Below, one piece after another: positions 4,479-32,770 of a DNA stretch of 64,000 nt (positions are counted from its first letter, which is position 1; each line of letters opens with the position of its first letter). A program made the position numbers and the translations under genes. Under the pieces are notes generated by a model, which was not told the DNA's origin, searched no databases, and worked only from the letters and a program-made list of their open reading frames with translations. Origin of the DNA: a virus; the IMG/VR virus record IMGVR_UViG_3300036766_002288, positions 1-64,000 of that record. One strand, given 5' to 3'.

Positions 4479-4972
4479 ATGAATACAAAATTCAGTCTTG
4501 TAAATGGTGCAATGATTCTAGAAATAGATCGTTTTGACGATGACCGTGGATTTTTTGAAGAATTGTATTCAAAAAAATGGAATTTAGACTTTCAATGTAT
4601 GCAAGTCAATTGCTCTCATTCTAAGAAGAATGTTCTACGTGGTATGCACGTTGCACCTTTTGCAAAACTCGTAAACTGCATTAAAGGTGCAATATTTGAT
4701 GTTGTTGTAGATGTGCGGCAAGATTCGACCACCTATTTAAAATGGTTTTACATTATACTAAATGAGGATAACCAGCGTTCATTCTACATTCCTGCTAATT
4801 GCGCGCATGGTTTTCTGGCACTAGAAGAATCTCATGTGGTTTATGCACAAGATGGCCTTTATGACCCAAAAATGGAAGCTCAATTCATTATGATTCACTA
4901 GGAATAGATTGGCCTGTTAAGGACGTGATATTATCTGAGAAAGATAAGAATGCACCTAAATTGGGTAATTAA
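4479..4972 (+). pseudogene. rmlC: dTDP-4-dehydrorhamnose 3,5-epimerase with a 1-nt frameshift near 4880
   Basis: FDDDRGFFEE, SHSKKNVLRGMH, KLVNC..G.IFDVVVDVR..S.TY, AHGFLAL; conserved tail HYDSLGIDWP..ILSEKDKNAP continues in another frame to TAA 4970-4972. Confidence 0.85.
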
Positions 4973-5354
4973 ACAAATTTAAAATAGACAATTTGTCCTT
5001 ACCACAAATAAGAATTTGATTTTTGGGTGCAGTGTGATCTTGATAAACTTCAAATCCCCTTATCCCTGAATGAACATGACCATAGTGCAATACGTCTTCA
5101 ACAGTATTTTCTTGCTTAGAAAATTCAAAAATTATTTTCCTTCCCTGTCCTATGTCCATGCCGTCTAATACAACAAGTGCAGAAATAATCTCAAAGTTTC
5201 CTATGATATAAGGCTTATCTTCTTTTGCTCTAGTAAAAGCAACTATAGAATCTAGTGTTTTATACAGAGTTACATACTTCTCTTTAATCGTATCACCTTC
5301 CGCGAAAACAAAATCCCAAGAAAAAAATTCAATATGCTCATAGAATGATTTCAT
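4956..5354 (-). CDS. hypothetical protein
   Basis: 132-aa ORF overlapping the lat stop. Confidence 0.55.
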   Translation of the reverse strand: MKSFYEHIEFFSWDFVFAEGDTIKEKYVTLYKTLDSIVAFTRAKEDKPYIIGNFEIISALVVLDGMDIGQGRKIIFEFSKQENTVEDVLHYGHVHSGIRGFEVYQDHTAPKNQILICGKDKLSILNLFNYPI

Positions 5355-6598: not shown

Positions 6599-6599
6599 A

Positions 6600-6863
6600 T
6601 TAAATCCAACCAGTTCTGAAGGCTTGGTCTATTTCTTGTTTGGTTAAATGTCGGCCCACAAACTCAGAAAGACACTCGCAAAAATGTTTTTCTATATCTG
6701 CTAATGCCAACTTTTTATATTCCACTCCTAGTGCTGATATTTTCCTTAATGCTTCAACGTCTATACTATAATCTAGTAATTCTCCATCAACAAACAATCC
6801 TTTTACTATTTTACCATACTTATCTTTGGTTATCCTGGATTCGAACTTCTTTTTGTCTTCCAT
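6600..6863 (-). CDS. hypothetical protein
   Basis: start shortened to ATG 6863 (MEDKKKFE) to avoid overlap with the divergent glycosyltransferase. Confidence 0.55.
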   Translation of the reverse strand: MEDKKKFESRITKDKYGKIVKGLFVDGELLDYSIDVEALRKISALGVEYKKLALADIEKHFCECLSEFVGRHLTKQEIDQAFRTGWI

Positions 6864-6892
6864 TAAATAATAAAGTAAAACTCTATTATTTA

Positions 6893-7942
6893 ATGACAAA
6901 AATATTTCTTCACATCCCCAATGATACCGCGTGCAGTCTTTATAGGGGAATACTTCCATTAGCACATTGCTATAGTGAATTAACAAAGCATGATATTTGG
7001 CTTATTGGTGACAAAGCCCCTATGAAAGAAGAAGAATTCACCCATTACATATTTAATCGCATTATTAACAAAGATTTCTTTGCCCAGCATGTTGAGCAGT
7101 ATATCAGAGAAGATAAGAAATTAATATGGCAAACTGACGACGATATATGGAATATACCGCCTTGGAATCCAAGTTCCAAGTTAGTAACTCGTGACCTTAT
7201 CGAGTCAACCACTTATTTCATGCATAAATCTAAGAAAATTATTGTTAGTACAGAGCCGCTTGCTCGTTTGATAAACATGCCAGATAAAACAATTGTTTTA
7301 CCCAACTTGATTGACAAGTCCTACTTTAATATGAACTTAGAAAAAGAAGAAGGTCCAGTTAAGATAGTTTGGGCAGGGTCAGTGTCTCATGCAGATGATT
7401 TGGAAGAGATTATTGAGCCGATGATTAAGATATTGGAGAAATATAAAGAAAAGGTGTTTGCTATATTTTGGGGATATCTCCCAACTGGATTGTCGTATTT
7501 TGAACGTGAGCCTGGATTCCCACACGCAAATATAGTGCCTAAATTTCCTAATTTGTTTTATGGGGAATGGTTTGCTGGTAGGGTTTACTATCAAAAACTT
7601 ATGCAGCTTCAGACTGATATAGCTATAATGCCTATTAGTGACTGCCAATTTAACTACTCTAAGAGTAACCTAAAATATCTAGAAATGTCTATGAGTGGGG
7701 CAGCATGTATAGCCACTAAATTACCACCATATGAATGCATTAAACACAATGAAACTGGCTTATTAGTTAATCCTGGAGATAAAGACGCTTGGTTCAATTA
7801 TATGGAAGAATTGATTGAGAATAAAGATTTAAGACTTAAATTAGCTAGGAATGCACGTCAACATGCAATAGAAGAATATTCTTGGCAATGTTCTAAAAGG
7901 GACAAGTGGGTTGAAGCTTTCTTAGAAATTAGTAAATTATAA
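6893..7942 (+). CDS. glycosyltransferase, GT-B fold (GT4-like)
   Basis: QTDDDIW..P.WNP, IVST..LA, VLPN.ID, WAGSVSH..DL, DIAIMP, FN.SKSNLK.LE, TGLLV; start moved to ATG 6893. Confidence 0.85.
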   Translation: MTKIFLHIPNDTACSLYRGILPLAHCYSELTKHDIWLIGDKAPMKEEEFTHYIFNRIINKDFFAQHVEQYIREDKKLIWQTDDDIWNIPPWNPSSKLVTRDLIESTTYFMHKSKKIIVSTEPLARLINMPDKTIVLPNLIDKSYFNMNLEKEEGPVKIVWAGSVSHADDLEEIIEPMIKILEKYKEKVFAIFWGYLPTGLSYFEREPGFPHANIVPKFPNLFYGEWFAGRVYYQKLMQLQTDIAIMPISDCQFNYSKSNLKYLEMSMSGAACIATKLPPYECIKHNETGLLVNPGDKDAWFNYMEELIENKDLRLKLARNARQHAIEEYSWQCSKRDKWVEAFLEISKL

Positions 7943-8218
7943 GGATTTGTGAATCTTAACAGGGTCTTTCTGAGTTTGTTCTTTAGCGGATTCTTCACCA
8001 TCCTGCCAGAAGTATGGCTTGAAAGTCCCCCAATTTGAATATGGTTTGTTTGGGCTTACATCCTTTTCGCTCATGTATGTAATAGCGTCAGCGCCCCAGG
8101 TAATAACATCTTGTGGGCAATAATTAAATATCTGGGTATACAAAGGCGGATATAAACCCGCCTTTGCTCTTGTGGACGTAGAACTATGTTCGACAAACCA
8201 TTCTTTGAAATTTAGCAT
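7937..8218 (-). CDS. putative virion-internal protein
   Basis: N-terminus MLNFKEWFVE resembles the T4 capsid-targeting sequence. Confidence 0.55.
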   Translation of the reverse strand: MLNFKEWFVEHSSTSTRAKAGLYPPLYTQIFNYCPQDVITWGADAITYMSEKDVSPNKPYSNWGTFKPYFWQDGEESAKEQTQKDPVKIHKSL

Positions 8219-8410
8219 TACTTTTTTTCATTATCCTTGTGAATATCACCCTTCTTAAATCTCATTGCTAAAGCCTTACGCCGTGGTGTACAAGTAGACT
8301 TCGTTATAGGGGTGCAAAAACCCTTTATGGGCTGGGTTCACAGCTTTCTGAATCCAATTCTTTTCGTCCAAAGCTATCTTCGCATCATAAAATTCTTTAA
8401 AAGTTATCAT
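8218..8410 (-). pseudogene. small basic putative virion-internal protein, split by a 1-nt homopolymer indel at about 8316-8320
   Basis: MITFKEFYDAKIALDEKNWIQKAVNPAHKGF continues as CTPITKSTCTPRRKALAMRFKK..EKK if one T is removed; GGAG RBS. Confidence 0.55.
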
Positions 8411-8425
8411 TGATTACTCCTATAC

Positions 8426-8653
8426 TTGCACATATATATGCTTAAAAAATTCATAATTAAAGCTCTGGTGTTCATAAATTTGGGCGAAGGTATTATTCAT
8501 TTAGTAGTTTCCGCTGTATCCTTATGGGGAATTTATGATCTAGGAGTGTTTGATTGGCGCGTTCTCACAGCCCCAATTACTGATTTATTTTTAGGATTAG
8601 CTTCTTTATTCACAAGCTATGTTTTGAGAGATTTTGCTAATCATCAGCATTAA
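8426..8653 (+). CDS. small two-TM membrane protein
   Basis: two hydrophobic helices. Confidence 0.55.
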   Translation: MHIYMLKKFIIKALVFINLGEGIIHLVVSAVSLWGIYDLGVFDWRVLTAPITDLFLGLASLFTSYVLRDFANHQH

Positions 8654-8693
8654 ATTTAATAACGATGCATATATAACTAAAATTGGAGGTTCT

Positions 8694-8897
8694 ATGTTAA
8701 GTTGGAATAAATTTGTTGAATCTAAGATGAAAGATTTAGAAGATAAAGAAGAGAAACTTGGTAAGGACTTAGATGGGGATAATGAAGAAGGTGAATCCAA
8801 AGAACACAAGAAGAAGGTTTTTGGGAAAATCTTCGGGAAAGAAAAAGTCGCTCCTGATGAAAAAGAACAGGAAGAAGACGACGAAGAAGAAGAGTAA
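8694..8897 (+). CDS. small acidic putative virion-internal protein
   Basis: GGAGG RBS; MLSWNKFVE start; highly charged. Confidence 0.6.
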   Translation: MLSWNKFVESKMKDLEDKEEKLGKDLDGDNEEGESKEHKKKVFGKIFGKEKVAPDEKEQEEDDEEEE

Positions 8898-8918
8898 TTT
8901 CATAAGTCCATACATATC

Positions 8919-8983
8919 AGCAGGTTAAAAACAATGGCGTTTATTCTATTTTTTGGAATAAACGCCATTGTTTTTAACCTGCT
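8919..8983. repeat. perfect 28-bp inverted repeat with 9-nt loop
   Basis: AGCAGGTTAAAAACAATGGCGTTTATTC / GAATAAACGCCATTGTTTTTAACCTGCT. Confidence 0.95.
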
Positions 8984-9060
8984 TAATAACAAAATGCTTA
9001 CTACACATACGATGTAATAAGCATTTTGTTAATTAGAAAGGCTATCATTCATTCAATTCA

Positions 9061-9435
9061 TTAAGTATTTGCTATGATAGAAGAAGAACCATCGTTCTCA
9101 AGAGAACCCCAAATGCCCTTCTTGACTAATTCCCAGCAAACATCGTCAGCAGCTGCACCCGTGATGTGGAAAGAACTTGCTGTGAAGGCTCCAACATAAG
9201 GATAAGTTGCGTGCGTTCCCTGTAAAAATGCGCAATATAGAGTCGCGCCACCTGGAAGAATTGGATAATAGACAGTAGCGTGACCGCTAGCGTCTAAAAT
9301 AACGTCTCCGCAAGCTACTACTCTTGGGCCAATCAAACGATGGACACCAAGGGACATACGTTCGGAACCTTTATTACCAGCACCATAATTATCGGCTGCG
9401 CCTGTTCCGACGCCTGTTACTGAAGTTGCACCCAT
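9061..9435 (-). CDS. putative virion structural protein (Gly/Ala/Thr-rich)
   Basis: GGAGG RBS, MGATSVTGVGTG start, TATAAATA upstream. Confidence 0.55.
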   Translation of the reverse strand: MGATSVTGVGTGAADNYGAGNKGSERMSLGVHRLIGPRVVACGDVILDASGHATVYYPILPGGATLYCAFLQGTHATYPYVGAFTASSFHITGAAADDVCWELVKKGIWGSLENDGSSSIIANT

Positions 9436-9470
9436 ATAGAAATACCTCCATTGTAAAATTATTTCTACCA

Positions 9471-9478
9471 TATTTATA
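9471..9478 (-). promoter_or_regulatory. T4-like late promoter TATAAATA
   Basis: exact T4 late consensus about 35 nt upstream of the 9435 start. Confidence 0.55.
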
Positions 9479-9547
9479 TATCACATAAATTTTTTATAAG
9501 TAGATTGGTAAAATTTAATATATATACAATATACAAGGAGGGTAAAT

Positions 9548-10123
9548 ATGACCTATTATGATAATCCAAGCGTAGTTGACTGGCACCGCCAAATAATTAT
9601 GGGGACTGTTTTAGGCGGTTCCTCCTTAGTAAAGCCTAAAAAAGGCAAGAATTGTTACCTTTTCATGAGGTCCGCCAACAAGAGATGGTTAGAGTATAAG
9701 GCTTATGAATTAAGCATTCTAGCTTCGCAAAGACCTTTTACTAAGGAAGGCAATACCATAAGATGGCATTCTAACTGCTATCCGATTTTCACCAATTATT
9801 ATGAAGTGTTCTACGATGAGAACAAAAAATCAGTAAAAATGGATATTTTGGATTCATTGCGTGATATTGGATTGGCTATCTGGTATGTCGATTGTGGCAA
9901 ACTAACTAAAAATAGAATAATCTTAAATACTAATAAGTTCGGTGAAGAAGGTACAGAAATAATAGCCAAATATTTTCAAGAAGTGGGAGTTGGGGAGACT
10001 AATTTGATAAGAGAAAGAAAGTATGTGAGGCTTCAATTTTCCTCAGAGGCTACGACCAAGTTTTTGCTAATTGTTGCGAATCGTATTCCAGATTTCATGC
10101 ACAGTAAGCTATTGCCAAAATAA
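9548..10123 (+). CDS. free-standing double-motif LAGLIDADG-family protein with degenerate catalytic residues
   Basis: QIIMGTVLGGSSL and GLAIWYVDCG correspond to the LGDG and WYxDDG motifs. Confidence 0.75.
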   Translation: MTYYDNPSVVDWHRQIIMGTVLGGSSLVKPKKGKNCYLFMRSANKRWLEYKAYELSILASQRPFTKEGNTIRWHSNCYPIFTNYYEVFYDENKKSVKMDILDSLRDIGLAIWYVDCGKLTKNRIILNTNKFGEEGTEIIAKYFQEVGVGETNLIRERKYVRLQFSSEATTKFLLIVANRIPDFMHSKLLPK

Positions 10124-10145
10124 TTTTCATTGTTACAATTGGGAC

Positions 10146-10532
10146 ATGTTCTCACTCAACATCGAACAGTCCAAAGCACTGGAAGTCGGAATTGACGTTC
10201 ATAAGCTACCTGCTGGAACGACAGTTCTGGTAATAACCAAAAACAATCTGTACAAACTGGTTAAAGCGGCAGAAAGGAAGCATGTTATTGCCCAAGGTGG
10301 CAAATATTTGCTTGAGCCAACTGAAGTAGTTTTTACTGGCTCCACCTTTGGTGGGTCAATGCTCAAAATAGGTTGGATTGGTTATGGCATGTTGATGGAG
10401 ATGTTTCTTTTAGACCAAAACAAAAGAATCAAAACTTCTCCAGTGAACGCTGCAAGAGTCATTGGTGATGGTTGGGAGTATGATCTAGATTGGGCGAATA
10501 TGGGAACGGCAAAGGTAATACGGGAAACTTAA
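10146..10532 (+). CDS. hypothetical protein (beta-rich)
   Basis: ORF; start set to ATG 10146. Confidence 0.6.
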   Translation: MFSLNIEQSKALEVGIDVHKLPAGTTVLVITKNNLYKLVKAAERKHVIAQGGKYLLEPTEVVFTGSTFGGSMLKIGWIGYGMLMEMFLLDQNKRIKTSPVNAARVIGDGWEYDLDWANMGTAKVIRET

Positions 10533-10555
10533 TTGCTTCCCGTATTACTCAAATT

Positions 10556-10951
10556 TCAAGGCAATGTATAAACACCACGTTCGGTATTCTTAATAGCCCC
10601 TTCAGCTACGAGCCGACCCAGAGCGACCCCTGGATTAGTATTTCTGCCTAGCCCTAAAAGGAATTTTCTGATTTCCCTTGGACGGGCAGGCCCGTTCTTT
10701 TCTAAAAATTCACGAATTAGCTGTGGGACAGTAAGTTCTTTTCTAGCAAATGTAGGGACTACATTACACTGTTTCTGAATTTGTTGTAGGGTTTCAGTCA
10801 TTTTACTTTGAAGTTGGCGTTTTCGTTCTTGCCAGAGATTAGATTGTTCCTGACAATGATTGATTTCGGAAACAAAGTCCTGCATGATCGTTTCCAGTTT
10901 TATTGAAAACTTACTAGGTTCATTTGCTGTTGTTTCCTGAATGGTTTCCAT
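10556..10951 (-). CDS. coiled-coil plus winged-helix DNA-binding protein
   Basis: C-terminal IREFLEKNGPARPREI...LGRLVAEGAIKNTERGVYTL; GGAG RBS. Confidence 0.7.
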   Translation of the reverse strand: METIQETTANEPSKFSIKLETIMQDFVSEINHCQEQSNLWQERKRQLQSKMTETLQQIQKQCNVVPTFARKELTVPQLIREFLEKNGPARPREIRKFLLGLGRNTNPGVALGRLVAEGAIKNTERGVYTLP

Positions 10952-10996
10952 GAAATACTCCCAAAAAAACGTGATACAGTTCTAAGACACAATTGA

Positions 10997-11024
10997 TTAA
11001 TACCACGAAGTTTCACATTGTCAA
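10997..11024 (-). promoter_or_regulatory. sigma70-like early promoter
   Basis: TTGACA-16nt-TATTAA on the minus strand upstream of 10951. Confidence 0.55.
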
Positions 11025-11057
11025 GTAATTTTACCTACTGACGGGTAAATACTCTTG

Positions 11058-11273
11058 ATGCTTACATTTCAAGAATTTATGAAACTAAAAGAAGAGAATG
11101 GGTTATTCTCACAAGGCCAGGAAACTGGAAACACTAAAAAAAATAAAAAAGACCCCAATCTTGTTCGTGGCGGTGCTAGTGGATTCACAGGCAGCGGCAG
11201 TAGTGGACAAGGGATGTATACAGGTTCAGGCCCAGGTTTAGGTGGAATGCAACCAGTTCGTATGAAAAAATAA
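11058..11273 (+). CDS. small Gly-rich putative virion-internal protein
   Basis: MLTFQEFMKLKEE start; GGTAAATA upstream. Confidence 0.6.
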   Translation: MLTFQEFMKLKEENGLFSQGQETGNTKKNKKDPNLVRGGASGFTGSGSSGQGMYTGSGPGLGGMQPVRMKK

Positions 11274-11280
11274 AATCTTC

Positions 11281-11308
11281 TTGACAAAATATATTGAAAT
11301 ACTATAAT
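11281..11308 (+). promoter_or_regulatory. consensus sigma70 early promoter
   Basis: TTGACA-16nt-TATAAT. Confidence 0.75.
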
Positions 11309-11375
11309 AGATAGTGTTGATGGCAATAGGGCCATCGCAAGTTGCAGCAATTCGGCTGCGAAGAAGGAGAATGTT

Positions 11376-12275
11376 ATGACAATTCAAGAAATGTATGATA
11401 CTGCGCTCGCAGTCATCAAAGAACACAATTCTATCGTTGGTGAAGGTCACTCGGGTTATATCAATCAGGATAAATTCTTAGTAAATGTCAAAGCAAGTGG
11501 CGGCACTACGTTGGATAGGTTAAAAGCCCTATCTTACGAGGATATCCTGGCGTGTATGCCAGTTATAGTTGGCCTAGAAGCAGTAAAGCCAATTGCTATC
11601 GCCAAAGATATCGCCAAAATCTTCCGTGGTAAAGAAGAAACTAAGATTGAAGATATGAACCACCACAAAGTCTTTTCCGCTAAGAAAGCGGATAAAATGA
11701 CTTTACTAGAATTAGTTCAAAATTATGATCCAGAAGAAGACAATGCGGTTTCTAAGAGACTTAAGGACATATCTCGCAATGAACCGTTTATCGTGTTCTC
11801 ATCGGGCAGAACAGTGAATGTTGACCTTACTTTGAAACTCTTGCAGGAAGTCAAGCAAGGCTACGAAGGTCGCAAATCTACAGATGTGAACGGTGAGCCA
11901 CAGGAAGTTTACACCATTGGTAGTTTGCCTGACAATTTTGTAGAAGAAAACCCATTATATCGTAATCGTCCATTACGTCCAGATGGCACCTGTGACCAAA
12001 CTGGCCGCTCATGGAATGGCGTCCCTACGAATGTTCGACAACTCATTCGTCTAGCGATAGAGACTAATGAACTTGAAGTATCCATTGATAAGGCCAACGA
12101 TGTATTGGACTTAGTAATGGCTGATGAACCTTGGAAAAAATTAGTTTCAAGGTACCGTAAAGCCGCGATTGAGTTCAAGAAATTGGATGGAATGGGTAAG
12201 TTACCATTGCTTAAGTTAGTTTTAAGTAAAGGGGGCTGCGAAAGCAAAAACCCTTTTCAGCAGGCAAGAAAGTAG
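11376..12275 (+). CDS. hypothetical early protein
   Basis: 299-aa ORF, AAGGAG RBS, consensus promoter upstream. Confidence 0.7.
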   Translation: MTIQEMYDTALAVIKEHNSIVGEGHSGYINQDKFLVNVKASGGTTLDRLKALSYEDILACMPVIVGLEAVKPIAIAKDIAKIFRGKEETKIEDMNHHKVFSAKKADKMTLLELVQNYDPEEDNAVSKRLKDISRNEPFIVFSSGRTVNVDLTLKLLQEVKQGYEGRKSTDVNGEPQEVYTIGSLPDNFVEENPLYRNRPLRPDGTCDQTGRSWNGVPTNVRQLIRLAIETNELEVSIDKANDVLDLVMADEPWKKLVSRYRKAAIEFKKLDGMGKLPLLKLVLSKGGCESKNPFQQARK

Positions 12276-22202: not shown

Positions 22203-23015
22203 TTACTTTTTCCTGGTCTTATTCACATGCTTGGTCGCCCATTCATTAAAACTTCCTGGACCACCGATTTTCTGAGTAGGTGCATAACCAACTTCGCCTG
22301 GTGCAGGCTCAGTGTTTGCTGACTTGTTAGTGTCTTCTGGTGCAATTAAAGTATCTTCATCAACTGGAACCCAATAACCCTCTTCGTCCTTAGCAAACTT
22401 AGTTCCACCTGTCATATCCCTTAATTTAGCAAGGAAGCTGTTCTCTTCCTTTTCTTCTTTCGCCATCATATTACACTTGGAACATTTACCCTTTTGCTTA
22501 TACTTGAGCATGTCCGCACCGTTAGCAGAATTCTGTTTCTTGTCTTTCTCATCAACGGCATCTTTGCCTTCTTTTTTCATCATCATTGGTGGCTTTGCGC
22601 CCATGTCACCGCCTCCAAATGGTGGCTTTTTCTTCTTATCCATAGGTGGTGGTGGACCTTCTTCTCCATCGCCTTCATCACCCATATCATCATGGTCCTC
22701 ACCGTCTTCATCATGGTCATGATCTTCTTCATCGCCGTCTTCATCATGGTCCTCACCGTCTTCATCATCACCCATATCATCATGGTCATGATCTTCTTCA
22801 TCGCCGCCCATATCATCATCATCGGTGGCATCGGCACCGCCCATATCTGGGGCCATACCTGGGTCTTCACCTGGCATAGGCTTCTTGGCTTTTTTCATCA
22901 TGCCAAAAAGTCCAGGGGCTTCGTTTACTGAACCAACAATATTTGCAGACTTGACACCTAGATTTGTATAGCCAAGATTTTCCTGCAAAATTTTCCAAGT
23001 CTTATATGATATCAT
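22203..23015 (-). CDS. low-complexity Asp/Glu/His-rich putative prohead core or internal protein
   Basis: MISYKTWKILQE start; DHDHDD/EDHDEDG repeats; CATAAATA upstream. Confidence 0.65.
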   Translation of the reverse strand: MISYKTWKILQENLGYTNLGVKSANIVGSVNEAPGLFGMMKKAKKPMPGEDPGMAPDMGGADATDDDDMGGDEEDHDHDDMGDDEDGEDHDEDGDEEDHDHDEDGEDHDDMGDEGDGEEGPPPPMDKKKKPPFGGGDMGAKPPMMMKKEGKDAVDEKDKKQNSANGADMLKYKQKGKCSKCNMMAKEEKEENSFLAKLRDMTGGTKFAKDEEGYWVPVDEDTLIAPEDTNKSANTEPAPGEVGYAPTQKIGGPGSFNEWATKHVNKTRKK

Positions 23016-24958: not shown

Positions 24959-25681
24959 TTAACGACGAACAATCACTCTATTGCCAAAGAGTCCGTTTCT
25001 TACTACTATGTTAGCTCTGCCATTGTTTACAATAACTCTGCTACCAAATAAACCACCAAATAGACCGTTATTGACGACAACAGTATTGTTAAAACCAAAG
25101 CGATTTACTCCAAAAGTATTGAATCCAAAGCGATTGAATCCAACATGGTTAAAACCAACTCCGTAGCCAACACCAAAAGCTGGTGTGTAGGCAAGTGCTG
25201 GAGCTACTGCGCCGACTGGTGCAAAAGCAACAGGGGCAGGACAAGGATCAGCTACTGGTGCTGCAAAAGCAACAGGGGCAGCTTGGCAAGGTGCCGCGAC
25301 TGCATATGAAGCTGCTACTGGATAAGCAACAGGAACGGCCACAGTTACAGGAACAGGAACGGCATAACCAACGCCTACTCCATGAACACCGAAACCAAAT
25401 CCATGATTTACAAATCCGAAATTGTTAAATCCGAAACCAAATCCATGATTTACAAATCCGAAATTGTTAAATCCGAAACCAAATCCATGATTTACAAATC
25501 CGAAATTGTTAAATCCGAAACCAAATCCACGATTGACTACAACTACGTTACGATTGAATCCACGATTGACTACAACTGCATTGCGTCCGAGACCACGACG
25601 AACAACTACTGCGGCATCAGCTACTGGTGCTGCACTAAACAGCATGGCTGCGCCTAAAATCAAACTAGTTAACCACTTCAT
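24959..25681 (-). CDS. exported low-complexity Gly/Phe/Asn/Val repeat protein
   Basis: signal peptide ending ADA; (GFGFGFNNFGFVNH)x3; VVVRR/VVVNR motifs; GGAGG RBS. Confidence 0.75.
   Translation of the reverse strand: MKWLTSLILGAAMLFSAAPVADAAVVVRRGLGRNAVVVNRGFNRNVVVVNRGFGFGFNNFGFVNHGFGFGFNNFGFVNHGFGFGFNNFGFVNHGFGFGVHGVGVGYAVPVPVTVAVPVAYPVAASYAVAAPCQAAPVAFAAPVADPCPAPVAFAPVGAVAPALAYTPAFGVGYGVGFNHVGFNRFGFNTFGVNRFGFNNTVVVNNGLFGGLFGSRVIVNNGRANIVVRNGLFGNRVIVRR
25389..25534. repeat. 42-bp exact tandem repeat, 3 copies plus a partial
   Basis: unit CCGAAACCAAATCCATGATTTACAAATCCGAAATTGTTAAAT at 25389, 25431, 25473. Confidence 0.95.
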
Positions 25682-25749
25682 AATCCTCCTATAATTTAAG
25701 ACACTTTATATATGCCTTCAATACCGCAAAAATTTAATCAATTCACAAA

Positions 25750-26613
25750 TTAATTTACACCAATTTGCCTTAGCCATTCTAAAATACTCTGTCTTTCATA
25801 CACTGAAAGCTGAAATTGCGTTTCTTTTGGGGGCATATGGCCCCTAGCAACTTCTTCTTTAACTTTTAACCAATTAACATTTTGGTTCAAATGTCCAATC
25901 TGAGTATAGATTTGGAACTCCTTTTTAGCTCCTACCCCCGTATGGCATTGGGCACATGTCCTACCAAATGCGTTAAAAACCACCTGCGTTAATTGTTGAT
26001 CGGGTTGCCTGGGAGCCTGTGATTGTTGTGGTTGTGGTTGTGGTTGTGGTTGTGGTTGTGGCGTACCAGGAACGGGTGGAGGGCCACCATCAGAAGTTCC
26101 ATCTGCCATCTTATTCATTTCCTCCAACAACGCTTTAGCAAGTTCTCTAATTTGATCTTTCCTGCTAAGACCCAGCTGTTGTTGCTGTTGTTGCTGTTGT
26201 TGCATGTTATATGCATTGGGTTGCTGATATCCGTATGGTTGTGTTTGCATCCCATAACCATATGGTTGAACTGCCGCTGGATAAGCACCCTGCTGCACGA
26301 CAGGATAAGCTTGTGGGTATCCTGTTACAGGCACGGTCGGCACTGCATATGTGGTTGGGACATATTGAAACTGAAATGCTGGAACCAAAACAGGATATGC
26401 AAAAGTTGGTGTGCATATTGTTTCTACTACGGGGGCGCATACTGTAGTGCAGACGGTATTGCAAACTGGCGCACATACTGTTCCGCAACTCACTGGCGCG
26501 CAGCGACCTCTAAATATTCCACACCTTCTTCCGAAGGCAAAGGCATCGCTGCTTGCAAAAAATAGACTAATCGCTCCTACTGCTAATAATGTTATAAGTA
26601 CCCATTTTCTCAT
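25750..26613 (-). CDS. exported mono-heme c-type cytochrome domain protein with Cys-rich and polyQ/PQ linkers
   Basis: signal peptide ending AFA; CAQCH heme motif; GHMPP probable Met ligand; LS..ER..I..W terminal helix. Confidence 0.75.
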   Translation of the reverse strand: MRKWVLITLLAVGAISLFFASSDAFAFGRRCGIFRGRCAPVSCGTVCAPVCNTVCTTVCAPVVETICTPTFAYPVLVPAFQFQYVPTTYAVPTVPVTGYPQAYPVVQQGAYPAAVQPYGYGMQTQPYGYQQPNAYNMQQQQQQQQQLGLSRKDQIRELAKALLEEMNKMADGTSDGGPPPVPGTPQPQPQPQPQPQQSQAPRQPDQQLTQVVFNAFGRTCAQCHTGVGAKKEFQIYTQIGHLNQNVNWLKVKEEVARGHMPPKETQFQLSVYERQSILEWLRQIGVN

Positions 26614-26632
26614 ATCACTCCTTCTTAGTTAA

Positions 26633-28486
26633 TTATGGCTTCGGTATAGGAATAAGTGGTCCAGGTGGGAACTGATCCGCATGATCTAATCCTTGCTTCC
26701 TTGCCATAATTAAAATCATAAATCTCTGGAATGAATGCTCCCATTGGTCACGTTTAATGGGGCGGATCGGGCTACGCAATAACCCTAGAACCAAATTGTC
26801 CTTACTAGCCTTTATATATCCATCTAATTGGTTAAATTCTACACCAATATCTCTGGAAACCTCTTCATGTGTTAAAAGGTTCTCAATATAATTGTTGTAT
26901 ATCTCGCTCATGACTCTGGATACAACTTCTGATTGCAAACCAGTTGACCTAGAAACAGCATCACGATACAGATTTTGGTCTGCAACTATTTGCCTATCTA
27001 AGTCGGAACCAAATAAATCTTCAATCTTATAAAAATCTTCTTTCCTAGTTACCAATAACTTAAGTTCTCTAGGATTCTTTAATTTGTTTGTCAATGCGCG
27101 AACTTCGTCATTAATTGGTCTAATACCATCAGCATGACAAATCATACAACTTCTTCCTGGTCGTACCAGTCTGTCAACTGAACCATTATCAAGAGCAATT
27201 TCAGGATTAGCAAAATCAACTCTTTTCCCTTTACCATCCGTTAATAAATAAGCTTGCAGTCCATTTGGCAACGTTCCTATTTCTTCGGTTGCATCAAATT
27301 GCTCACGCAATAAGAATTGAACGTAATTCCTATCATCTACTGATTTTAATGAATCATGGCTTCTCCAGATATAGCCGCCCGTAAAAGTAGGGCTTCTATT
27401 TAGAGTCCTATTGTTTCTTGCAACCATTGAAGTTACAACAACAGCTTTATCCTGTGATCTTGCTTTTTCAGCAAGTTTTTCATCTGCAAAAATTAACTTG
27501 TCAAAATCTTCTGCTTTATCTCCTAGTTTCAAGAAATCATAGTAGGCTGGAGGGACTATAACATTTGACATAAACCAATCTCCTCTATAGATTGGAAAGT
27601 CAGAATGTGTGTTGCTCATCAATGTTTGATAACCTAACGGGTCTAACCAAGGCACCTTACAATCAATTACAAACTTTCTTTTATTAGAAACTGTTTCTTC
27701 TACTTCTACGTCCTCTAGAGTGACTACTTCTTTAAAAATCTGCTGACCACGTTGGTCATATTGATTAGTAGGAACTTTCTTAACTTTTTCTACCTGCTTC
27801 TTAACCTTTACCTTTTCAAAAACAGGTTGTTCTACGAACATATGGAAATAAGGTTCTGGCTGTGGATGGACTCCACTACCTTTAAGACCTAATTTCTCCC
27901 ATGCTTCAGGGGTCCATTCATAATCATTGATATTTAAACGAATCAAGGTTTCATCACTAGCCCCTACAAATTCTGGGATGTACATCTGTCTTCGTGTACT
28001 TAGAGAATTACACACGAAGGATAAGGCGGCAGCATATTCTTTCCTTTTGGCTTTTGGTATGTTATAGAGAGATATATAACGTATGTAAGGTCGCATTTCT
28101 ACTGGCAGTGATAATAAGTCACCAGTAGCAAATACAACTGCACTATTAGGCCCATATAAAATTTCAGGTGGTGGATTTAAATTAGGTGGCCCAACATTAG
28201 GCAGAGAATTAACCTGCTGATTAACAGGTGGTGTATCACTCACTTGTGGTGGCGGCGTTGGCGGCTCCACAAGTTTAGGCGGACCATTGTTAACTAATTG
28301 ACTATTTTTAGGCAACGAAACATCAACCCGTGGTGACGTAGTATTAATCACAGGTTGCGTTTTAACTTGCAAATCAGGAGTAGAAGTCTCAACTTTACGG
28401 TCTGCGTTGCGTGATGCTGCTGTTACGAATACTAAGACAGCAGCAACAATCGCTACACACGACATAATAACACTAAATTTTTTCAT
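26633..28486 (-). CDS. membrane-anchored protein with C-terminal CxxCH heme motif
   Basis: N-terminal hydrophobic anchor, Pro-rich linker, WRSHD...EEIGTLPNGLQAYLL...GRSCMICHADGI. Confidence 0.7.
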   Translation of the reverse strand: MKKFSVIMSCVAIVAAVLVFVTAASRNADRKVETSTPDLQVKTQPVINTTSPRVDVSLPKNSQLVNNGPPKLVEPPTPPPQVSDTPPVNQQVNSLPNVGPPNLNPPPEILYGPNSAVVFATGDLLSLPVEMRPYIRYISLYNIPKAKRKEYAAALSFVCNSLSTRRQMYIPEFVGASDETLIRLNINDYEWTPEAWEKLGLKGSGVHPQPEPYFHMFVEQPVFEKVKVKKQVEKVKKVPTNQYDQRGQQIFKEVVTLEDVEVEETVSNKRKFVIDCKVPWLDPLGYQTLMSNTHSDFPIYRGDWFMSNVIVPPAYYDFLKLGDKAEDFDKLIFADEKLAEKARSQDKAVVVTSMVARNNRTLNRSPTFTGGYIWRSHDSLKSVDDRNYVQFLLREQFDATEEIGTLPNGLQAYLLTDGKGKRVDFANPEIALDNGSVDRLVRPGRSCMICHADGIRPINDEVRALTNKLKNPRELKLLVTRKEDFYKIEDLFGSDLDRQIVADQNLYRDAVSRSTGLQSEVVSRVMSEIYNNYIENLLTHEEVSRDIGVEFNQLDGYIKASKDNLVLGLLRSPIRPIKRDQWEHSFQRFMILIMARKQGLDHADQFPPGPLIPIPKP

Positions 28487-28492
28487 TCGGCA

Positions 28493-29158
28493 TCACTTCA
28501 CTGTTGGTTTAGGCTGCAAAGCATTTAAAATCATTTGAACAAGGAACTGCATAATCTGATCTCCGTACTGCTGCTCCAACACAGGAAGATAAGTCGTAAT
28601 CATCTGAACTATGTACTGAACTAATTGCTCTCCATATTGCTGTCCTAATGTAGGGAGAAAATTCGTAATTTCCTGAATAATAAATTGAACGATCTGACTC
28701 CCATATTTTTGTTGTAATGTTGGAAGTATGTTTAATATTGCTTGGACAATAAATTGTATAACTTGGTTCCCATATTTTTGTTCCAAAATAGGGAGGAAGT
28801 TTTTAATAAGTTGTGGTAGATAATTTTCAATAAGAGCTTCTATAAAACTAATATCAATTCCACCAACATTTCCAGTAACACTACTGGTAATATCATTGCC
28901 GACAACAATGTTTCCAGGCACAACTACGTTAGCAGCGGCGAAATTTGCCTGCTTCTTAGCAAATAGGGACACCAAGAACTGTAGTAGTCCAGGACCAAAT
29001 TTATTCATTACCTCAACAATTAAACCAACACTAAATCCATTGCGTGCTGCTTCCACTACAAGGGCGAGTATATCAGCCCCATATTTTTCCAGTATATCAG
29101 TTATCCATGTGGCATCAAAGCCAAAATTTTCTGCACTAATCTTTAATTCTTCCGACAT
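28493..29158 (-). CDS. amphipathic helical protein with four 23-aa repeats
   Basis: LPxLxQxYGxQxxQFIVQxIxNx repeated four times. Confidence 0.7.
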   Translation of the reverse strand: MSEELKISAENFGFDATWITDILEKYGADILALVVEAARNGFSVGLIVEVMNKFGPGLLQFLVSLFAKKQANFAAANVVVPGNIVVGNDITSSVTGNVGGIDISFIEALIENYLPQLIKNFLPILEQKYGNQVIQFIVQAILNILPTLQQKYGSQIVQFIIQEITNFLPTLGQQYGEQLVQYIVQMITTYLPVLEQQYGDQIMQFLVQMILNALQPKPTVK

Positions 29159-29167
29159 TTTTGCTCC

Positions 29168-30004
29168 TTAATTAGGTACAATAGGCACTTCATCAGCTGG
29201 GGTATTATCTTGTGGGTCATCTATAATTGCTTGAATTGCAAAAGCGTCTGGGTTCATCATGTTGAAATGACCCCTTTGCAAATAACAATGTCCATTCTTA
29301 CCAAAATTACTACCCCAACTATTCTGTATCTTAATTAGCCAGCCATATTTAGCTGATTTCTTGAGGCCCATGCCCAATACACAATGACCACCACCACCAC
29401 CTGCTGGCAACGGGGCAACACCTTCACTATCTAAATTTGGGAAATTATTGCCAACATATAATCCAAGAGGACATACAAAACCCAACGTAATTGCAGAACA
29501 AATGTCCTCGAAAGTCTGACAATGATAAGCCTGAGCCAGCTTAAATCTCTTAGCAATTTCAAAAGCGGTTGGCGGGAATTGATTTTGGAACATCGTTCCT
29601 GCTGGTATATCCCCTAATCGACAGATTCCATATTGCATTAAAGCTTTTAACGCATCGGAGATTTGTGCCCCTGCATCCCTTCCACCATTAATTAACCCAT
29701 ATGCAAAGAATGGCGTAAATGGAACCAATGGTCTTCCAGATTGCTTATAGCACATCTCCATACCCGAACATGTCCCATGTCCTACACAACTACTAGTCAT
29801 GCCCTGATTTAGAATCGGTAAGTTGTACCATTCTAAATCAATTTCCTGCCATTGCGATGGATCAAGGGTCGTAGCCATTGCTGACCCAAATTTTGGAAAC
29901 TCCTTTATGGACTCAGAAGTTTCGGGGATACATGCTAAAACTCTATAAAATCCATCGAATTTAATAGAAGGTAAATTACTAATTGAATACTTGCCTATAT
30001 GCAT
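29168..30004 (-). CDS. papain-like cysteine peptidase (C1A)
   Basis: NQG.TSSCVGH (Gln, Cys), GGHCV (His), QNSWG (Asn). Confidence 0.88.
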   Translation of the reverse strand: MHIGKYSISNLPSIKFDGFYRVLACIPETSESIKEFPKFGSAMATTLDPSQWQEIDLEWYNLPILNQGMTSSCVGHGTCSGMEMCYKQSGRPLVPFTPFFAYGLINGGRDAGAQISDALKALMQYGICRLGDIPAGTMFQNQFPPTAFEIAKRFKLAQAYHCQTFEDICSAITLGFVCPLGLYVGNNFPNLDSEGVAPLPAGGGGGHCVLGMGLKKSAKYGWLIKIQNSWGSNFGKNGHCYLQRGHFNMMNPDAFAIQAIIDDPQDNTPADEVPIVPN

Positions 30005-30771
30005 TATTGTCCCCCTAAAACTGAATTTAAATAAGCTAAAACTTCTGCCTCTGTCCTTGGTACGCGAATTGGCTGACCTTTGATGCTACCATTGTTTTCT
30101 TGTATTATTATTATTGGTATGCCGCCCCACTTAGCCACTATTTTATCAAGCCCTTTTTCTTTTAATAAAGGATTGGCAACATCATACACTCTATAAAAAG
30201 CATTTTTGGAAGTAGCCGCGTCCCTAACCTTTTGAGAATTAAGAACTTGGCCTAATTCAGGTGTACTATTGTTCATATCATATACAAAAGTAACATGGAA
30301 AGGCGCACCTCCAACACCAGGAGTTGGCACAGGTGGAGGATTAGGGCCTGGCGGAATAGGAGTTCCACCAACCGTTATATTGGTCCTTGCAAACTCCGTC
30401 ATTTTGCCACCGACTGAGCCGACAGCAAAAATGTTAATTAGCCCACCTTGGGGTGGGATTGAAATAACAATTGTGTTACCTTGGGGTAACGTAAAATACT
30501 TAATCTTAACCGCACTGACTACAAGCCATTTCACATCACCATTGCACTTGGCCTGGATTGTGATAAAGCCTTCATCATTTTTTACTGTCTGGTCTTCAGG
30601 GAGTTCTATCCCTTCTACTTTATTTCCAGACGCTGCAATAGGAGTTACCGTTGGAACTGTTGCCGTTGGAGGTGCTGGATTCTGCGATAAAGCAGGGGAT
30701 ATTAAGCCAAGAAGGAGAACACTACAAAGTAATTTTTTATATACCATATTCACCTGTTGTTTAATAATCAA
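30004..30771 (-). CDS. exported Pro-linker two-domain protein (C-terminal thioredoxin-like fold suspected)
   Basis: signal peptide, beta-rich domain, PPGPNPPPVPTP linker, GIPIIIIQ; no CxxC. Confidence 0.6.
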   Translation of the reverse strand: MIIKQQVNMVYKKLLCSVLLLGLISPALSQNPAPPTATVPTVTPIAASGNKVEGIELPEDQTVKNDEGFITIQAKCNGDVKWLVVSAVKIKYFTLPQGNTIVISIPPQGGLINIFAVGSVGGKMTEFARTNITVGGTPIPPGPNPPPVPTPGVGGAPFHVTFVYDMNNSTPELGQVLNSQKVRDAATSKNAFYRVYDVANPLLKEKGLDKIVAKWGGIPIIIIQENNGSIKGQPIRVPRTEAEVLAYLNSVLGGQ

Positions 30772-30902
30772 AATTTAAGATAGTAATTTTTTAAAAATTA
30801 AGCAAGAAAAAAATTTTCTTTACGGGACAGAAATTCGTGCTATGATACCTTAGTTGTACCAGCCAAGCTGTGTCAATTTATTAGTAATTGAGGAGGTGAA
30901 TT

Positions 30903-31901
30903 ATGTCCACTCACACTTGTCCAGTTGTACCAATTGTGCTGGAAAAACACGATAATGCTGATTCCTTGTCCATTGTTAGGGTCAAGGGCTTTATCTATGT
31001 TGCTCGCACACAGGATTGGGTCAATCATCCGCTTGGCGTTTGGATTGAACCAGATATGGTTGTGCCCGCTGATCGTCCAGAATTTGCTTGGCTGGAAAAA
31101 TCTCATAAACTCATTGAGAACAATGGGGTTAAAGGCTACCGTATTAAGGTTAAGCAGCTTCGTGGCGTTATGTCTATGGGTCTAATGACTCCTGCACCAG
31201 AAGGTACTAAGGAAGGCGACGACCTTATGTCGCATTTTGGTATCGTTCGATACGAACCACCGATGCCGCTTTCCACTTACGGAGAAGCTACTAAACCGCC
31301 GCCAGGTGTCCGCTACTCTTACGACGTGGAAAATGCTTACAACTTCTCTCACCTCTTTACTGATGAGGAAGAGATTGTTGCCACGGAGAAAGTGCATGGT
31401 GCCAACGGTCGGTTTGCTTATGTGCCCGATATTGGAATGTTTGCAGGGAGCAGAACCGAATGGAAGCGACAGAATGATACTAACCTTTGGTGGAAAGCAT
31501 TAGAGAATAACCCAGAAGTTGTAGAGTTCTGTAAAGCTAATCCCGAAATCACCGTATATGGCGAAGTATACGGTCAAGTGCAAGACCTTACCTATGGTTT
31601 TGAAAAAGGCAAGGTTGCTATCATTGTATTCGACCTTCTTCGTAATGGCGAATGGATCAACCACGACGAAGCTAGGGAAATTGGTAAAACTCTTCCTTGG
31701 GTACCGATTATTTACCGTGGGCCTTGGAACAAAGAAAAAATCTTTGCTATTGCAGACGGTAAGTCTGAGGTCGCTAAAGTAAAGGGGAAAGACCAAATTC
31801 GTGAAGGTATTGTTGTTAAACCGCTCAAGGAACGTAGCAATCTTGAAATTGGTCGGACTCAAATTAAGATTGTTTCCAATGCTTACCTTGAACGGGCGTA
31901 A
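30903..31901 (+). CDS. ATP-dependent RNA ligase (DRB0094/Rnl2-like) with N-terminal OB domain
   Basis: KH.NADSL, TEKVHGAN (motif I), YGEVYG, FDL, REGIVVKP, KIVSNAYL. Confidence 0.9.
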   Translation: MSTHTCPVVPIVLEKHDNADSLSIVRVKGFIYVARTQDWVNHPLGVWIEPDMVVPADRPEFAWLEKSHKLIENNGVKGYRIKVKQLRGVMSMGLMTPAPEGTKEGDDLMSHFGIVRYEPPMPLSTYGEATKPPPGVRYSYDVENAYNFSHLFTDEEEIVATEKVHGANGRFAYVPDIGMFAGSRTEWKRQNDTNLWWKALENNPEVVEFCKANPEITVYGEVYGQVQDLTYGFEKGKVAIIVFDLLRNGEWINHDEAREIGKTLPWVPIIYRGPWNKEKIFAIADGKSEVAKVKGKDQIREGIVVKPLKERSNLEIGRTQIKIVSNAYLERA

Positions 31902-31903
31902 TT

Positions 31904-31936
31904 ACATGGCACTGACCTAATAGGTCAGTGCCATGT
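31904..31936 (+). terminator. 15-bp perfect hairpin between ligase and Thg1-like genes
   Basis: ACATGGCACTGACCT-aat-AGGTCAGTGCCATGT. Confidence 0.6.
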
Positions 31937-31951
31937 TTATGGAGTATATAA

Positions 31952-32770
31952 ATGGCATCTGATAAGACTGAAATTGGAAATCGCATGAAATACTATGAAG
32001 GGTTTGAAACTCGTCGTAGACTTATGCCTTTAAATCCTGCTGTCTGCCGTTTAGATGGTAAGAATTTCCACAATTTTTGTCGTGGTTTAGAAAGACCTTA
32101 CGATGAACGCCTATCATCATTAATGTGTGACCTTACTACTTTCCTTGCCAAGGAGTTTTGCGCAGTTGCCGCCTATACTCAAAGTGATGAAATTACTCTT
32201 GTGTGGAATCAGGAAAGGTTTGATTCTGAAATCTTCTGTGATGGCAAGATTCAGAAAATGAATTCTTTATTGGCAGCTAGAACTTCTGTCAAATTTAATT
32301 CATTACTGTCCCAATACATTCCAGAAAAAGTCAGTATGGAACCGATCTTTGACTGCCGAATTTTCTCTTTGCCGAACACTACGGAAGCTGCCAACGTGTT
32401 CTTGTGGAGAGAAATTGATGCTGCGCGTAACAGCGTTCAAATGGCAGGGCGTGCTTATTTTTCTCATAATGAAGTGCAGGATAAGAATGGTTCAGAAATT
32501 CAGGAAATGCTTTTCTCAAAAAAGAACATTAACTGGAATGATTATCCTGCGTTTTTTCGCAGAGGTAGATATATATTACGGAGAATTAAAAAAGGAATAT
32601 TGAAATTTGAAGAAATAGAAACACTGCCACTAAAACACCACGCCCGCAGTAATCCAGAATTAGTTTGTGAACGAAATGTTTATGAAGAAGTTCATTTACC
32701 ACCGTTAAGGAAAATAGTCAATCGAGAAAGAGTTTTATTTTATAATGAGGAACCTAAAACAAAGGAATAG
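31952..32770 (+). CDS. tRNA-His guanylyltransferase Thg1-like protein (3'-5' polymerase)
   Basis: RLDGKNFH, YTQSDEI, GKIQKMNS, FDCR, WRE.DA.RNS. Confidence 0.93.
   Translation: MASDKTEIGNRMKYYEGFETRRRLMPLNPAVCRLDGKNFHNFCRGLERPYDERLSSLMCDLTTFLAKEFCAVAAYTQSDEITLVWNQERFDSEIFCDGKIQKMNSLLAARTSVKFNSLLSQYIPEKVSMEPIFDCRIFSLPNTTEAANVFLWREIDAARNSVQMAGRAYFSHNEVQDKNGSEIQEMLFSKKNINWNDYPAFFRRGRYILRRIKKGILKFEEIETLPLKHHARSNPELVCERNVYEEVHLPPLRKIVNRERVLFYNEEPKTKE

Follow-up and report, generated by a model that had tools for sequence, protein, structure and literature searches.

What does a very large phage do with two adjacent genes whose predicted exported products each carry CxxCH, the motif of covalent haem c attachment? 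The question is raised by a cassette of six tightly packed minus-strand open reading frames (ORFs), named here G1 to G6, at positions 24959-30771 of a 64,000-nucleotide stretch of DNA (the window), namely the first 64 kb of the 187-kb IMG/VR virus record IMGVR_UViG_3300036766_002288. The answer argued for below is that G4 and G5 each correspond, by sequence comparison, to one half of a di-haem protein that is fused in bacteria, and that they would form a split di-haem unit in the periplasm of the host, in which electron transfer would fall to G5 and ligand handling or sensing to G4, with G1 and G6 as exported accessories and cysteine peptidases as possible effectors; a rough probability of 0.55 is given to this reading.

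The record has a CheckV completeness of 37%, and large-phage genes are present in the window, namely an intein-bearing ribonucleotide reductase, an SbcC-like nuclease, a CTP synthase, a tail sheath, an RNA ligase and a Thg1-like enzyme. The closest public genome is LR756511.1, a 595-kb uncultured phage, and a protein identical to G1 was found on a 590-kb contig; the cassette belongs to a lineage of huge (about 590 kb) phages, the present one being an uncultured phage from sediment. Full-text literature searches returned no paper describing the cassette, and phage cytochrome or maturation genes were found reported, in the literature searched, only in predicted temperate phages of ammonia oxidisers.

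The two haem-motif proteins

The two proteins at the centre of the question, together with their motifs, are located in the window as follows:

26633-28486, minus strand: G4, predicted membrane-anchored or exported 617-residue haem-motif protein (ORF, alignments)
27134-27148, minus strand: CMICH of G4, residues 447-451, candidate haem c attachment site (invariant motif)
27254-27271, minus strand: LPNGLQ of G4, residues 406-411, second hallmark of the family (invariant motif)
25750-26613, minus strand: G5, predicted exported protein with a C-terminal cytochrome c domain (ORF, alignment, profiles)
25942-25956, minus strand: CAQCH of G5, residues 220-224, haem c attachment motif (invariant motif)
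25828-25836, minus strand: MPP of G5, residues 260-262, probable distal Met (alignment)

G5 is composed of a signal peptide, a segment with eight Cys (residues 31-67), a tether of low complexity made of Tyr, Pro, Val and Gln with polyQ and (PQ)n, and a C-terminal domain from about residue 195 to 287. In an alignment of the last 95 residues of 12 phage copies (A3), both Cys and the His of the attachment motif, a Met-Pro pair (M68-P69) and a Trp (W88) are invariant, and the CxxCH is also found in LR756511.1 and in the distant contig L097. The MPP stands some 35-40 residues after the CxxCH and is followed by a C-terminal helix with a conserved Trp, the same pattern being found in the bacterial alignment A4. 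All 12 phage copies match Cytochrome_CBB3 (best E 6.9e-9), eight match Cytochrom_C and seven PSCyt1 (best E 7.2e-5), while a search of the PDB gave only trivial CxxCH matches. By alignment and profiles, the C-terminal domain of G5 is a mono-haem class-I cytochrome c of the PSCyt1 type (PF07635 / PF13442) with a predicted haem, in line with the exported cytochrome claimed by a model that had read the letters and translated ORFs of this DNA without database searches (the original prediction).

Close homologues of G4 number at least 326, lack any Pfam domain and lie in many cases on contigs of 540-670 kb. The motif R-S-C-x-x-C-H-x-x-G is invariant in four alignments, i.e., A1 (27 sequences), A2 (65), A5 (100) and A6 (60), and the CxxCH is present at all 96 loci tested. 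A second motif, L-P-N-G-L-Q-x-Y, is invariant across phage and bacterial members and is situated on the beta-sheet preceding the CxxCH helix. Sequence and profile searches with G4 gave no match in Pfam, NCBIfam, PHROGs or the PDB.

Relation to a fused bacterial protein family

Relatives of G4 at 25-36% identity were found by tblastn at 80 bacterial loci (E 1e-20 to 1e-36), the family being represented in Blastocatellia and other Acidobacteriota, Planctomycetota, Poribacteria and Verrucomicrobiota. With the profile of the C-terminal half of G4 (A2), hmmsearch collected 4,921 clusters at E<=1e-3, of which 2,402 reached E<=1e-30, clusters being here representatives at 50% identity. A lead came from the ESM Atlas, where G4 matched PSCyt1-bearing bacterial clusters at 0.85; it was tested afterwards, and PF07635 (PSCyt1) was matched in 37 of the 60 top family representatives (best E 2.9e-17). 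Nearly all of the 80 bacterial ORFs possess two CxxCH, one at about residue 40-60, directly after the signal peptide, and the other some 360 residues further on, whereas phage G4 has the second motif only. The bacterial family can be described as a signal peptide, PSCyt1, a domain of about 500 residues bearing the second CxxCH, and a variable tail, and it has no Pfam model.

G4, from about residue 113 to 600, is homologous to the whole part of these fused proteins that follows the cytochrome, and shares with the family a set of invariants, namely RSCxxCH, LPNGLQxY, D303, R360, W374, D378, E401, D503 and R579. An N-terminal PSCyt1 in the same polypeptide is absent from phage G4, where only one CxxCH occurs and a cytochrome domain is lacking, and the domain of G5 aligns with the N-terminal cytochrome domain of the bacterial G4 relatives at an hhalign probability of 98% (E 1.1e-13). 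Since PSCyt1 and a G4-like domain are fused in bacteria and G5 matches that very PSCyt1, the phage pair would be a split form and, on these sequence grounds, each of the two proteins represents one half of a di-haem polypeptide that bacteria encode in one piece. This domain fusion constitutes the main evidence that the two phage proteins work together. In a quick tree with Shimodaira-Hasegawa-like approximate likelihood ratio (SH-aLRT) support only, the phage G4s group together in a single deep clade that contains no bacterial sequence (support 100), which argues that the phage form is old.

The tails of the bacterial proteins comprise LRR, cohesin, dockerin, TPR, WD40, FGE-sulfatase/PvdO-like and DUF4384 domains and, in Poribacteria, the unit is fused in LRR/cohesin/dockerin proteins of 1,200-2,500 residues. 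Some relatives extend in the other direction, with cytoplasmic signalling domains ahead of the di-haem unit: in the representative P0299, the cytochrome and G4-like domains are preceded by a PknB-like Ser/Thr kinase (E 1e-41) and a transmembrane segment and followed by a PvdO/FGE-sulfatase-like tail, and in P0258 they come after an FHA domain and a transmembrane segment, FHA being present in 4 of the 60 representatives. As read from their sequences, these kinase and FHA architectures, which concern a minority of the relatives, have the layout of an extracytoplasmic sensor. Bacterial G4-like genes mostly stand alone, without generally conserved neighbours, S9/S33 peptidases and VWA genes being found beside them in a few loci only.

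Predicted fold of G4 and supply of haem

The whole of G4 was modelled by AlphaFold2 with a predicted local distance difference test score (pLDDT) of 78 and a predicted template modelling score (pTM) of 0.73, the N-terminus forming a helix (residues 3-28), and residues 283-605, modelled from the 65-sequence alignment, with a pLDDT of 88.8 and a pTM of 0.83. In an exhaustive VIA-align search, cytochrome P460/c'-beta was, for the region of the sheet and the CxxCH, the only family to recur with both models, at Z values that all lie below 8, i.e., in the range where likeness may be a common arrangement:

8brk, cytochrome c'-beta: Z 5.9 (whole protein), 5.2 (domain model)
6hiu, cytochrome P460: Z 5.1 (whole protein), 4.4 (domain model)
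7s5o, cytochrome c'-beta: Z 4.9 (whole protein), 4.2 (domain model)
6amg, cytochrome P460: Z 4.3 (whole protein), 3.8 (domain model)
2je3, cytochrome P460: not listed (whole protein), Z 3.5 (domain model)

The alignments cover 100-117 of the 135-158 target residues, with a root-mean-square deviation of 3.5-4.2 Å, and bring together a five-stranded sheet and the CxxCH helix. The C-terminal helices of G4 match generic winged-helix-like bundles at Z of about 5, and a PDB search with the A2 profile did not bring up any chain of P460 or c'. The likeness to P460/c'-beta, borne by residues ~320-500 of the models, is thus a weak one, to be taken as a lead on mechanism and not as membership. Among the invariant columns of G4 there is no Met or His able to be the sixth ligand; given this lack of a conserved distal residue and a CxxCH placed after the sheet as in P460/c'-beta, the working inference is that the haem of G4 would be five-coordinate and ligand-accessible.

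Regarding the supply of haem, neither CcsA/CcmF (PF01578) nor ResB (PF05140) was found in the 187-kb record, and CcsA/CcmF was likewise absent from LR756511.1 (595 kb) and from four further records, control genomes being positive. As no phage-encoded maturation gene was found, any attachment of haem must use the system of the host, as had been proposed from the window alone.

Organisation and conservation of the cassette

The remaining features of the cassette and its borders are the following:

30004-30771, minus strand: G1, predicted exported protein (ORF; probable true start ATG at 30747)
29168-30004, minus strand: G2, predicted papain-family (C1) cysteine peptidase (Pfam, PHROG and PDB matches)
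28493-29158, minus strand: G3, helical protein with a 23-residue repeat (ORF, repeat analysis)
24959-25681, minus strand: G6, predicted exported Gly/Phe/Asn/Val repeat protein (ORF, repeats)
24942-24909, both sides usable: hairpin terminator with a 15-bp stem and flanking A and T runs, closing the cassette
30772-30902, no strand assigned: divergent intergenic region of 131 nucleotides separating G1 from the RNA ligase gene, where the promoter of the cassette is presumed to lie

The intergenic gaps, in G1 to G6 order, are of -1, 9, 6, 19 and 68 nucleotides, and the GC content of the block (0.385-0.42) is uniform and like that of the surrounding stretch. The terminator sits between G6 and a convergent ORF; at the other end, no convincing minus-strand sigma-70 site was found in 30772-30902. 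A hydrophobic N-terminal segment following Lys or Arg is present in G1, G4, G5 and G6 (Kyte-Doolittle 12-residue mean 2.2-3.3), from which export of these four proteins by a predicted Sec route would follow, and no such signal or anchor segment was found in G2 (mean 0.9) or G3.

The order of the cassette genes is found again in 12 or more independent contigs of huge phages, presence or absence of the six proteins being established across loci by tblastn and ORF reading (L085-L089, L092 and L094 are IMG/VR contigs):

LR756511.1, L085-L089, L092 and L094: G1-G2-G3-G4-G5-G6, same order
L090, L091 and L095: G1-G4-G5(-G6), without G2 and G3
L096 (distant, G4 29% identical): G1, a small ORF, G4, G5 and a G6-like exported Gly/Phe-rich protein
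L097 (distant, G4 32% identical): G1, G2 with an intein, G4, G5 and a G6-like Gly/Tyr-rich protein

In the two distant cassettes, homology was supported by profile matches, i.e., at a probability of 97.7% (E 1.5e-12) for the L096 copy of G1 and of 96.6% for the L097 copy of G5. The core is G1-G4-G5(-G6), where G6 is usually present, and G2 and G3 are optional insertions. In both L096 and L097 the flanks differ from those of the close relatives and, in L096, a 138-kb phage contig, the cassette (3724-11872) is situated between two baseplate-type genes, one of which resembles the 'baseplate wedge subunit' of phage Tunturi_5 of Tunturiibacter (Acidobacteriota); in Vibrio phage D181, these two genes stand close to each other. 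Given these different flanks and the interruption of a baseplate gene pair, the shared order is not mere collinearity of genomes, and this suggests that the cassette is a self-contained unit behaving as insertable or transferable. In the close relatives, the flanking order is also kept (Thg1, a 108-residue ORF, a 164-residue ORF and the acidic repeat protein); Thg1 adjoins the cassette in most of them and an RNA ligase match in L089 only.

That the block could be a misassembled fragment of a host genome was also considered. In an independent sediment run, contigs of a relative 93-95% identical bridge both junctions of the block at even depth, the left bridge running through upstream ORFs, the terminator and G6, the right one from G5 through G1 to the RNA ligase and Thg1, and these contigs break only at repeats internal to G5 and G6. 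Together with synteny in at least 12 contigs, this even-depth bridging shows that the block is not such a fragment. The repeats in question are a 42-bp unit present 3.5 times in G6 at 99% identity (25389-25534) and, in G5, (GTTGTG)6 and a 9-bp unit present 3.7 times (26025-26061 and 26175-26208), which encode the (PQ)n and polyQ. Public assemblies from two runs break exactly at these G5/G6 repeats, where a related strain shows small in-frame indels.

The original prediction had described six co-oriented and closely spaced minus-strand genes closed by a terminator, four of them with signal or anchor peptides, and encoding, among others, a papain-like peptidase, a 23-residue repeat, CMICH, CAQCH with MPP and a Gly-Phe-Asn repeat; the ORFs, the hairpin, the hydrophobic N-termini and the coordinates and motifs of each feature bear this description out. 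Both CxxCH are moreover invariant in every homologue examined and the genes do co-occur elsewhere, in the same order. Its broader proposal, i.e., a phage module with haem proteins for the host envelope, stands as regards a conserved cassette of mostly exported proteins; a 'six-gene system' overstates the unit, since two of the genes, G2 and G3, encode proteins that lack an export signal, and some cassettes do without them. As for the filament, matrix or redox-gated lysis suggested as functions, no specific support was found. The split relation of G4 and G5, the large family without a Pfam model, its receptor-kinase and FHA members and a second pair of peptidase and G4 paralogue (described below) go beyond what had been noticed.

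Several neighbouring genes can be mentioned besides the cassette. The RNA ligase (PF09414, PHA02142 OB domain) and the Thg1-like tRNA-His guanylyltransferase, at 30903-32770, are divergent and adjoin it. A 270-residue protein with a long Asp/Glu/His/Gly/Met repeat (DEEDHDHD...), encoded at 22203-23015, is also found beside the cassette in relatives, with a repeat of varying length. Further away, the ribonucleotide reductase, of class II (B12-type), at 58377-61739 is split by an intein with a LAGLIDADG domain.

The other members of the cassette

G1 comprises a signal peptide, an N-terminal beta-rich domain, a Pro-rich linker and a C-terminal alpha/beta domain. Its 69 homologues all lie on phage-type contigs of up to 595 kb and have no Pfam domain; their alignment (A7) exhibits a conserved signal peptide ending in ...S(F/L)SQ and two conserved domains, and suggests the start at ATG 30747. 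Sequence and profile searches of the PDB, Pfam, PHROGs and NCBIfam gave no match for G1, and only unnamed viral clusters were matched in the ESM Atlas. A DsbD-like redox protein made of an Ig and a thioredoxin fold was envisaged and rejected, as the C-terminal domain has no Cys and the single Cys of the N-terminal domain is not invariant.

G2 matches Pfam Peptidase_C1 at 21.4 bits (cut-off 20.7), phrog_16701 'peptidase' at 7e-11 and xylellain (PDB 3OIS) at E 8e-9 over residues 63-246. The catalytic set occurs in order, namely Gln67, Cys73, His207 and Asn228, and its motifs are kept in LR756511.1, so that G2 is predicted from sequence to be an intact, very divergent peptidase of the papain family C1. 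Its gene is missing from the cassettes of L090, L091, L095 and L096. Inspection of the translation by eye placed an intein with LAGLIDADG-like motifs in the G2-type peptidase of L097 (L097:4875-6857), directly before the catalytic Cys (QGQTSS / CFPAGT...VHN / CTGFG), which is as such the +1 extein residue.

G3 is helical and devoid of Cys, with a conserved N-terminal part followed by about 4.5 copies of a 23-residue amphipathic repeat (consensus LPxLxQxYGxQxxQFxVQxIxN; 46% self-identity at period 23). The number of copies differs between phages, the LR756511.1 protein being of 149 residues, and only sub-threshold, repeat-driven family matches were obtained in Pfam and PHROGs. The small ORF found at this position in L096 was tried as a G3 homologue and discarded for want of significant similarity.

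G6 has an Ala/Pro/Val/Tyr-rich centre, a basic C-terminus and Gly/Phe/Asn/Val repeats; like the first 190 residues of G5, it is of low complexity (Gly/Phe/Asn/Tyr/Pro/Val) with recent repeat expansion. ORFs of similar composition and size with signal peptides occupy the same position in L001, L085-L094, L096 and L097, the similarity of G6 to its L096 counterpart being weak (E 0.006), and there is no match to G6 in Pfam, NCBIfam or PHROGs. A curli or Fap-type amyloid system was set aside, the likeness consisting only in the composition of G6 and a C39-like peptidase elsewhere in the genome, with no homology tested or found.

A second peptidase beside a G4 paralogue

Outside the window, the same genome contains a second pair of this kind (G000:C1:151193-152952, i.e., L003:551-2310). 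Its first member is an exported Peptidase_C39-like protein of 204 residues (Pfam 25.5 bits, cut-off 22), the gene of which overlaps by 4 nucleotides the start of a short G4 paralogue (382 residues, signal peptide, CVACH). Three other phages, namely LR756511.1 and two IMG/VR records, have conserved this pair. A papain-fold cysteine peptidase thus stands twice beside a G4-type protein, each time from a different peptidase family, which makes a coupling of the two suggestive, if unproven. In L091 and L095, a C39-like gene is also found at a distance of about 3 kb from the main cassette.

Proposed mechanism and alternative explanations

Under the favoured reading, G4 and G5 would receive covalent haem in the periplasm from the cytochrome c maturation (Ccm) or the Ccs system of the host, the Met of the invariant MPP being the likely sixth ligand of the G5 haem. 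The tethered G5 would then pass electrons to or from the haem of G4 and this latter, in a pocket weakly like that of P460/c'-beta, may bind or turn over O2, NO, peroxide or a ligand of the hydroxylamine class. As such, the unit could monitor or buffer the redox or gas state of the envelope of the infected cell, possibly in connection with the neighbouring cysteine peptidases. Since some bacterial relatives constitute the outer part of receptor kinases or FHA proteins, the unit would most likely be a sensing or ligand-handling module rather than a component of a respiratory chain. A more specific version, in which the five-coordinate, P460/c'-beta-like haem of G4 binds NO, O2, peroxide or hydroxylamine, G5 poises it, and its state controls the C1 and C39 peptidases and so times envelope remodelling or lysis by the redox or respiratory state of the host, is tentative and, taken as a whole, unlikely; were it true, it would provide a first function for a bacterial family that counts thousands of members and has no Pfam model.

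Several points weigh against the favoured reading. Export, haem binding, the partnership of G4 and G5 and the physiological role are all deduced from sequence; that the host has a cytochrome c maturation system is itself a presumption, and the deep separate clade of phage G4s, as placed by the quick tree, gives no hint of host or donor. The G5 domain of this stretch scores 22.1 bits on Cytochrome_CBB3, below the gathering cut-off of 27. As regards the likeness of G4 to P460/c'-beta, besides the low range of its Z values, Foldseek found no solved relative in the PDB for either G4 model, and the P460 Pfam model (PF16694) is absent among the 25 families listed of the 32 matched by the 65 A2 members at E<=10. 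Judging from its sequence, phage G4 has no cytoplasmic output domain, and signalling as in the kinase-linked relatives would be impossible. G2 and G3 have no export signals and are linked to the exported core by adjacency only. Finally, the close relatives are collinear across the flanks, and only L096 and L097 show the cassette independent of its surroundings.

Among the other explanations, one considers the block as a cassette for breaching the envelope or timing lysis, where the cytoplasmic G2, the amphipathic G3 and the exported proteins would degrade or permeabilise the envelope late in infection, with haem as a redox trigger. An intact C1 peptidase without signal peptide, like canonical endolysins, next to an amphipathic helical protein, a second and exported C39-like peptidase paired with a G4 paralogue, and a strong terminator marking a discrete unit would all agree with it. 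It is nonetheless improbable, as none of the six proteins matches a peptidoglycan hydrolase, a holin-like protein or a spanin in Pfam, PHROGs or NCBIfam, the N-terminus of G3 does not reach the hydrophobicity usual for transmembrane segments and the strongest family matches are noise, several cassettes keep G1-G4-G5 without G2 and G3, and the bacterial G4 family is fused to kinases, FHA, TPR, LRR and FGE-sulfatase and not to lysis functions. It is also doubtful that the proteins exclude superinfecting phages or mask receptors by means of a scaffold at the surface or in the periplasm, in which the G5 tether, G6 and G1 would form a coat or mesh, G4 would be a binding domain and the CxxCH would be structural (metal or disulphide) or its haem incidental. 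Such a role would suit the Gly/Phe/Asn/Tyr/Pro-rich, repeat-expanding and beta-prone nature of G6 and of the N-terminal half of G5, the equivalent low-complexity proteins at the same positions in distant cassettes, and the usual joining of bacterial G4 relatives to protein-binding repeats (LRR, TPR, WD40, cohesin/dockerin); yet an invariant R-S-C-x-x-C-H-x-x-G over thousands of exported proteins better fits a cofactor site, the G4 domain is constantly paired with a bona fide cytochrome c domain, and no homology to known exclusion or amyloid systems was found in Pfam, PHROGs or NCBIfam.

A further explanation is an auxiliary respiratory carrier: G5 and G4 would join the periplasmic electron-transport chain of the host and sustain its energy during a long infection, in the manner of other metabolic genes of phages, which is what two predicted exported c-type haem proteins, one with a class-I domain of the soluble-carrier kind, could do in a phage rich in metabolic genes (CTP synthase, ribonucleotide reductase). 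This too is unlikely, for the bacterial relatives stand alone without conserved respiratory neighbours and are fused to sensor or binding domains, the phage G4s belong to an old separate clade and are not recent host copies, and the cassette contains no oxidase or reductase partner. Last, there may be no system at all, i.e., six unrelated functions on one transcript, whose shared order would reflect the collinearity of related genomes; the flanking gene order kept in close relatives and the coming and going of G2 and G3 would speak for it. This is the least probable of the explanations, as bacteria have the G4 and G5 domains in a single protein and the order persists in L096 and L097, where identity is down to about 30% and the flanks differ, and, in L096, within an interrupted baseplate gene pair, such a reading having already been weakened for G1, G4, G5 and G6.

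A whole lineage among the largest phages known has thus retained a cassette for two predicted exported haem-motif proteins, which it apparently transfers in one piece. Their function, once known, would also show how large phages act on the envelope of their host during infection. G4 also defines a domain without a Pfam model or a clear solved fold, distributed over about 4,900 clusters and sometimes forming the outer part of receptor kinases.

Comparison with known systems

Compared with papain-type C1 peptidases, among which xylellain is the closest with a solved structure, G2 has the same Gln-Cys-His-Asn set but is very divergent, without signal peptide or recognisable pro-domain. Cytochromes P460 and c'-beta (8BRK, 6HIU, 7S5O, 6AMG, 2JE3) bear a weak likeness to the G4 models, theirs being a beta-sheet haem domain in which the CxxCH follows the sheet; G4 has large extra N- and C-terminal parts, and no sequence relation to them was found. 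PSCyt-domain proteins are in general of unknown function (PMC5615132). The PSCyt1/PSCyt2-PSD1 (DUF1549/DUF1553) and DUF1501 modules of the Planctomycetes-Verrucomicrobia-Chlamydiae (PVC) superphylum likewise associate an exported PSCyt cytochrome with large uncharacterised domains, and in the same phyla; neither G4 nor its relatives and neighbours contain DUF1549, DUF1553 or DUF1501, and the G4 domain is a different family. The nearest system remains the bacterial PSCyt1 family itself, uncharacterised as well (He et al.), in comparison with which the phage cytochrome is encoded by a separate downstream gene, as the C-terminus of a low-complexity protein, and G4 has no tail domain. Being small, split and free of variable tails, the phage form offers a convenient starting point for the function of the whole family.

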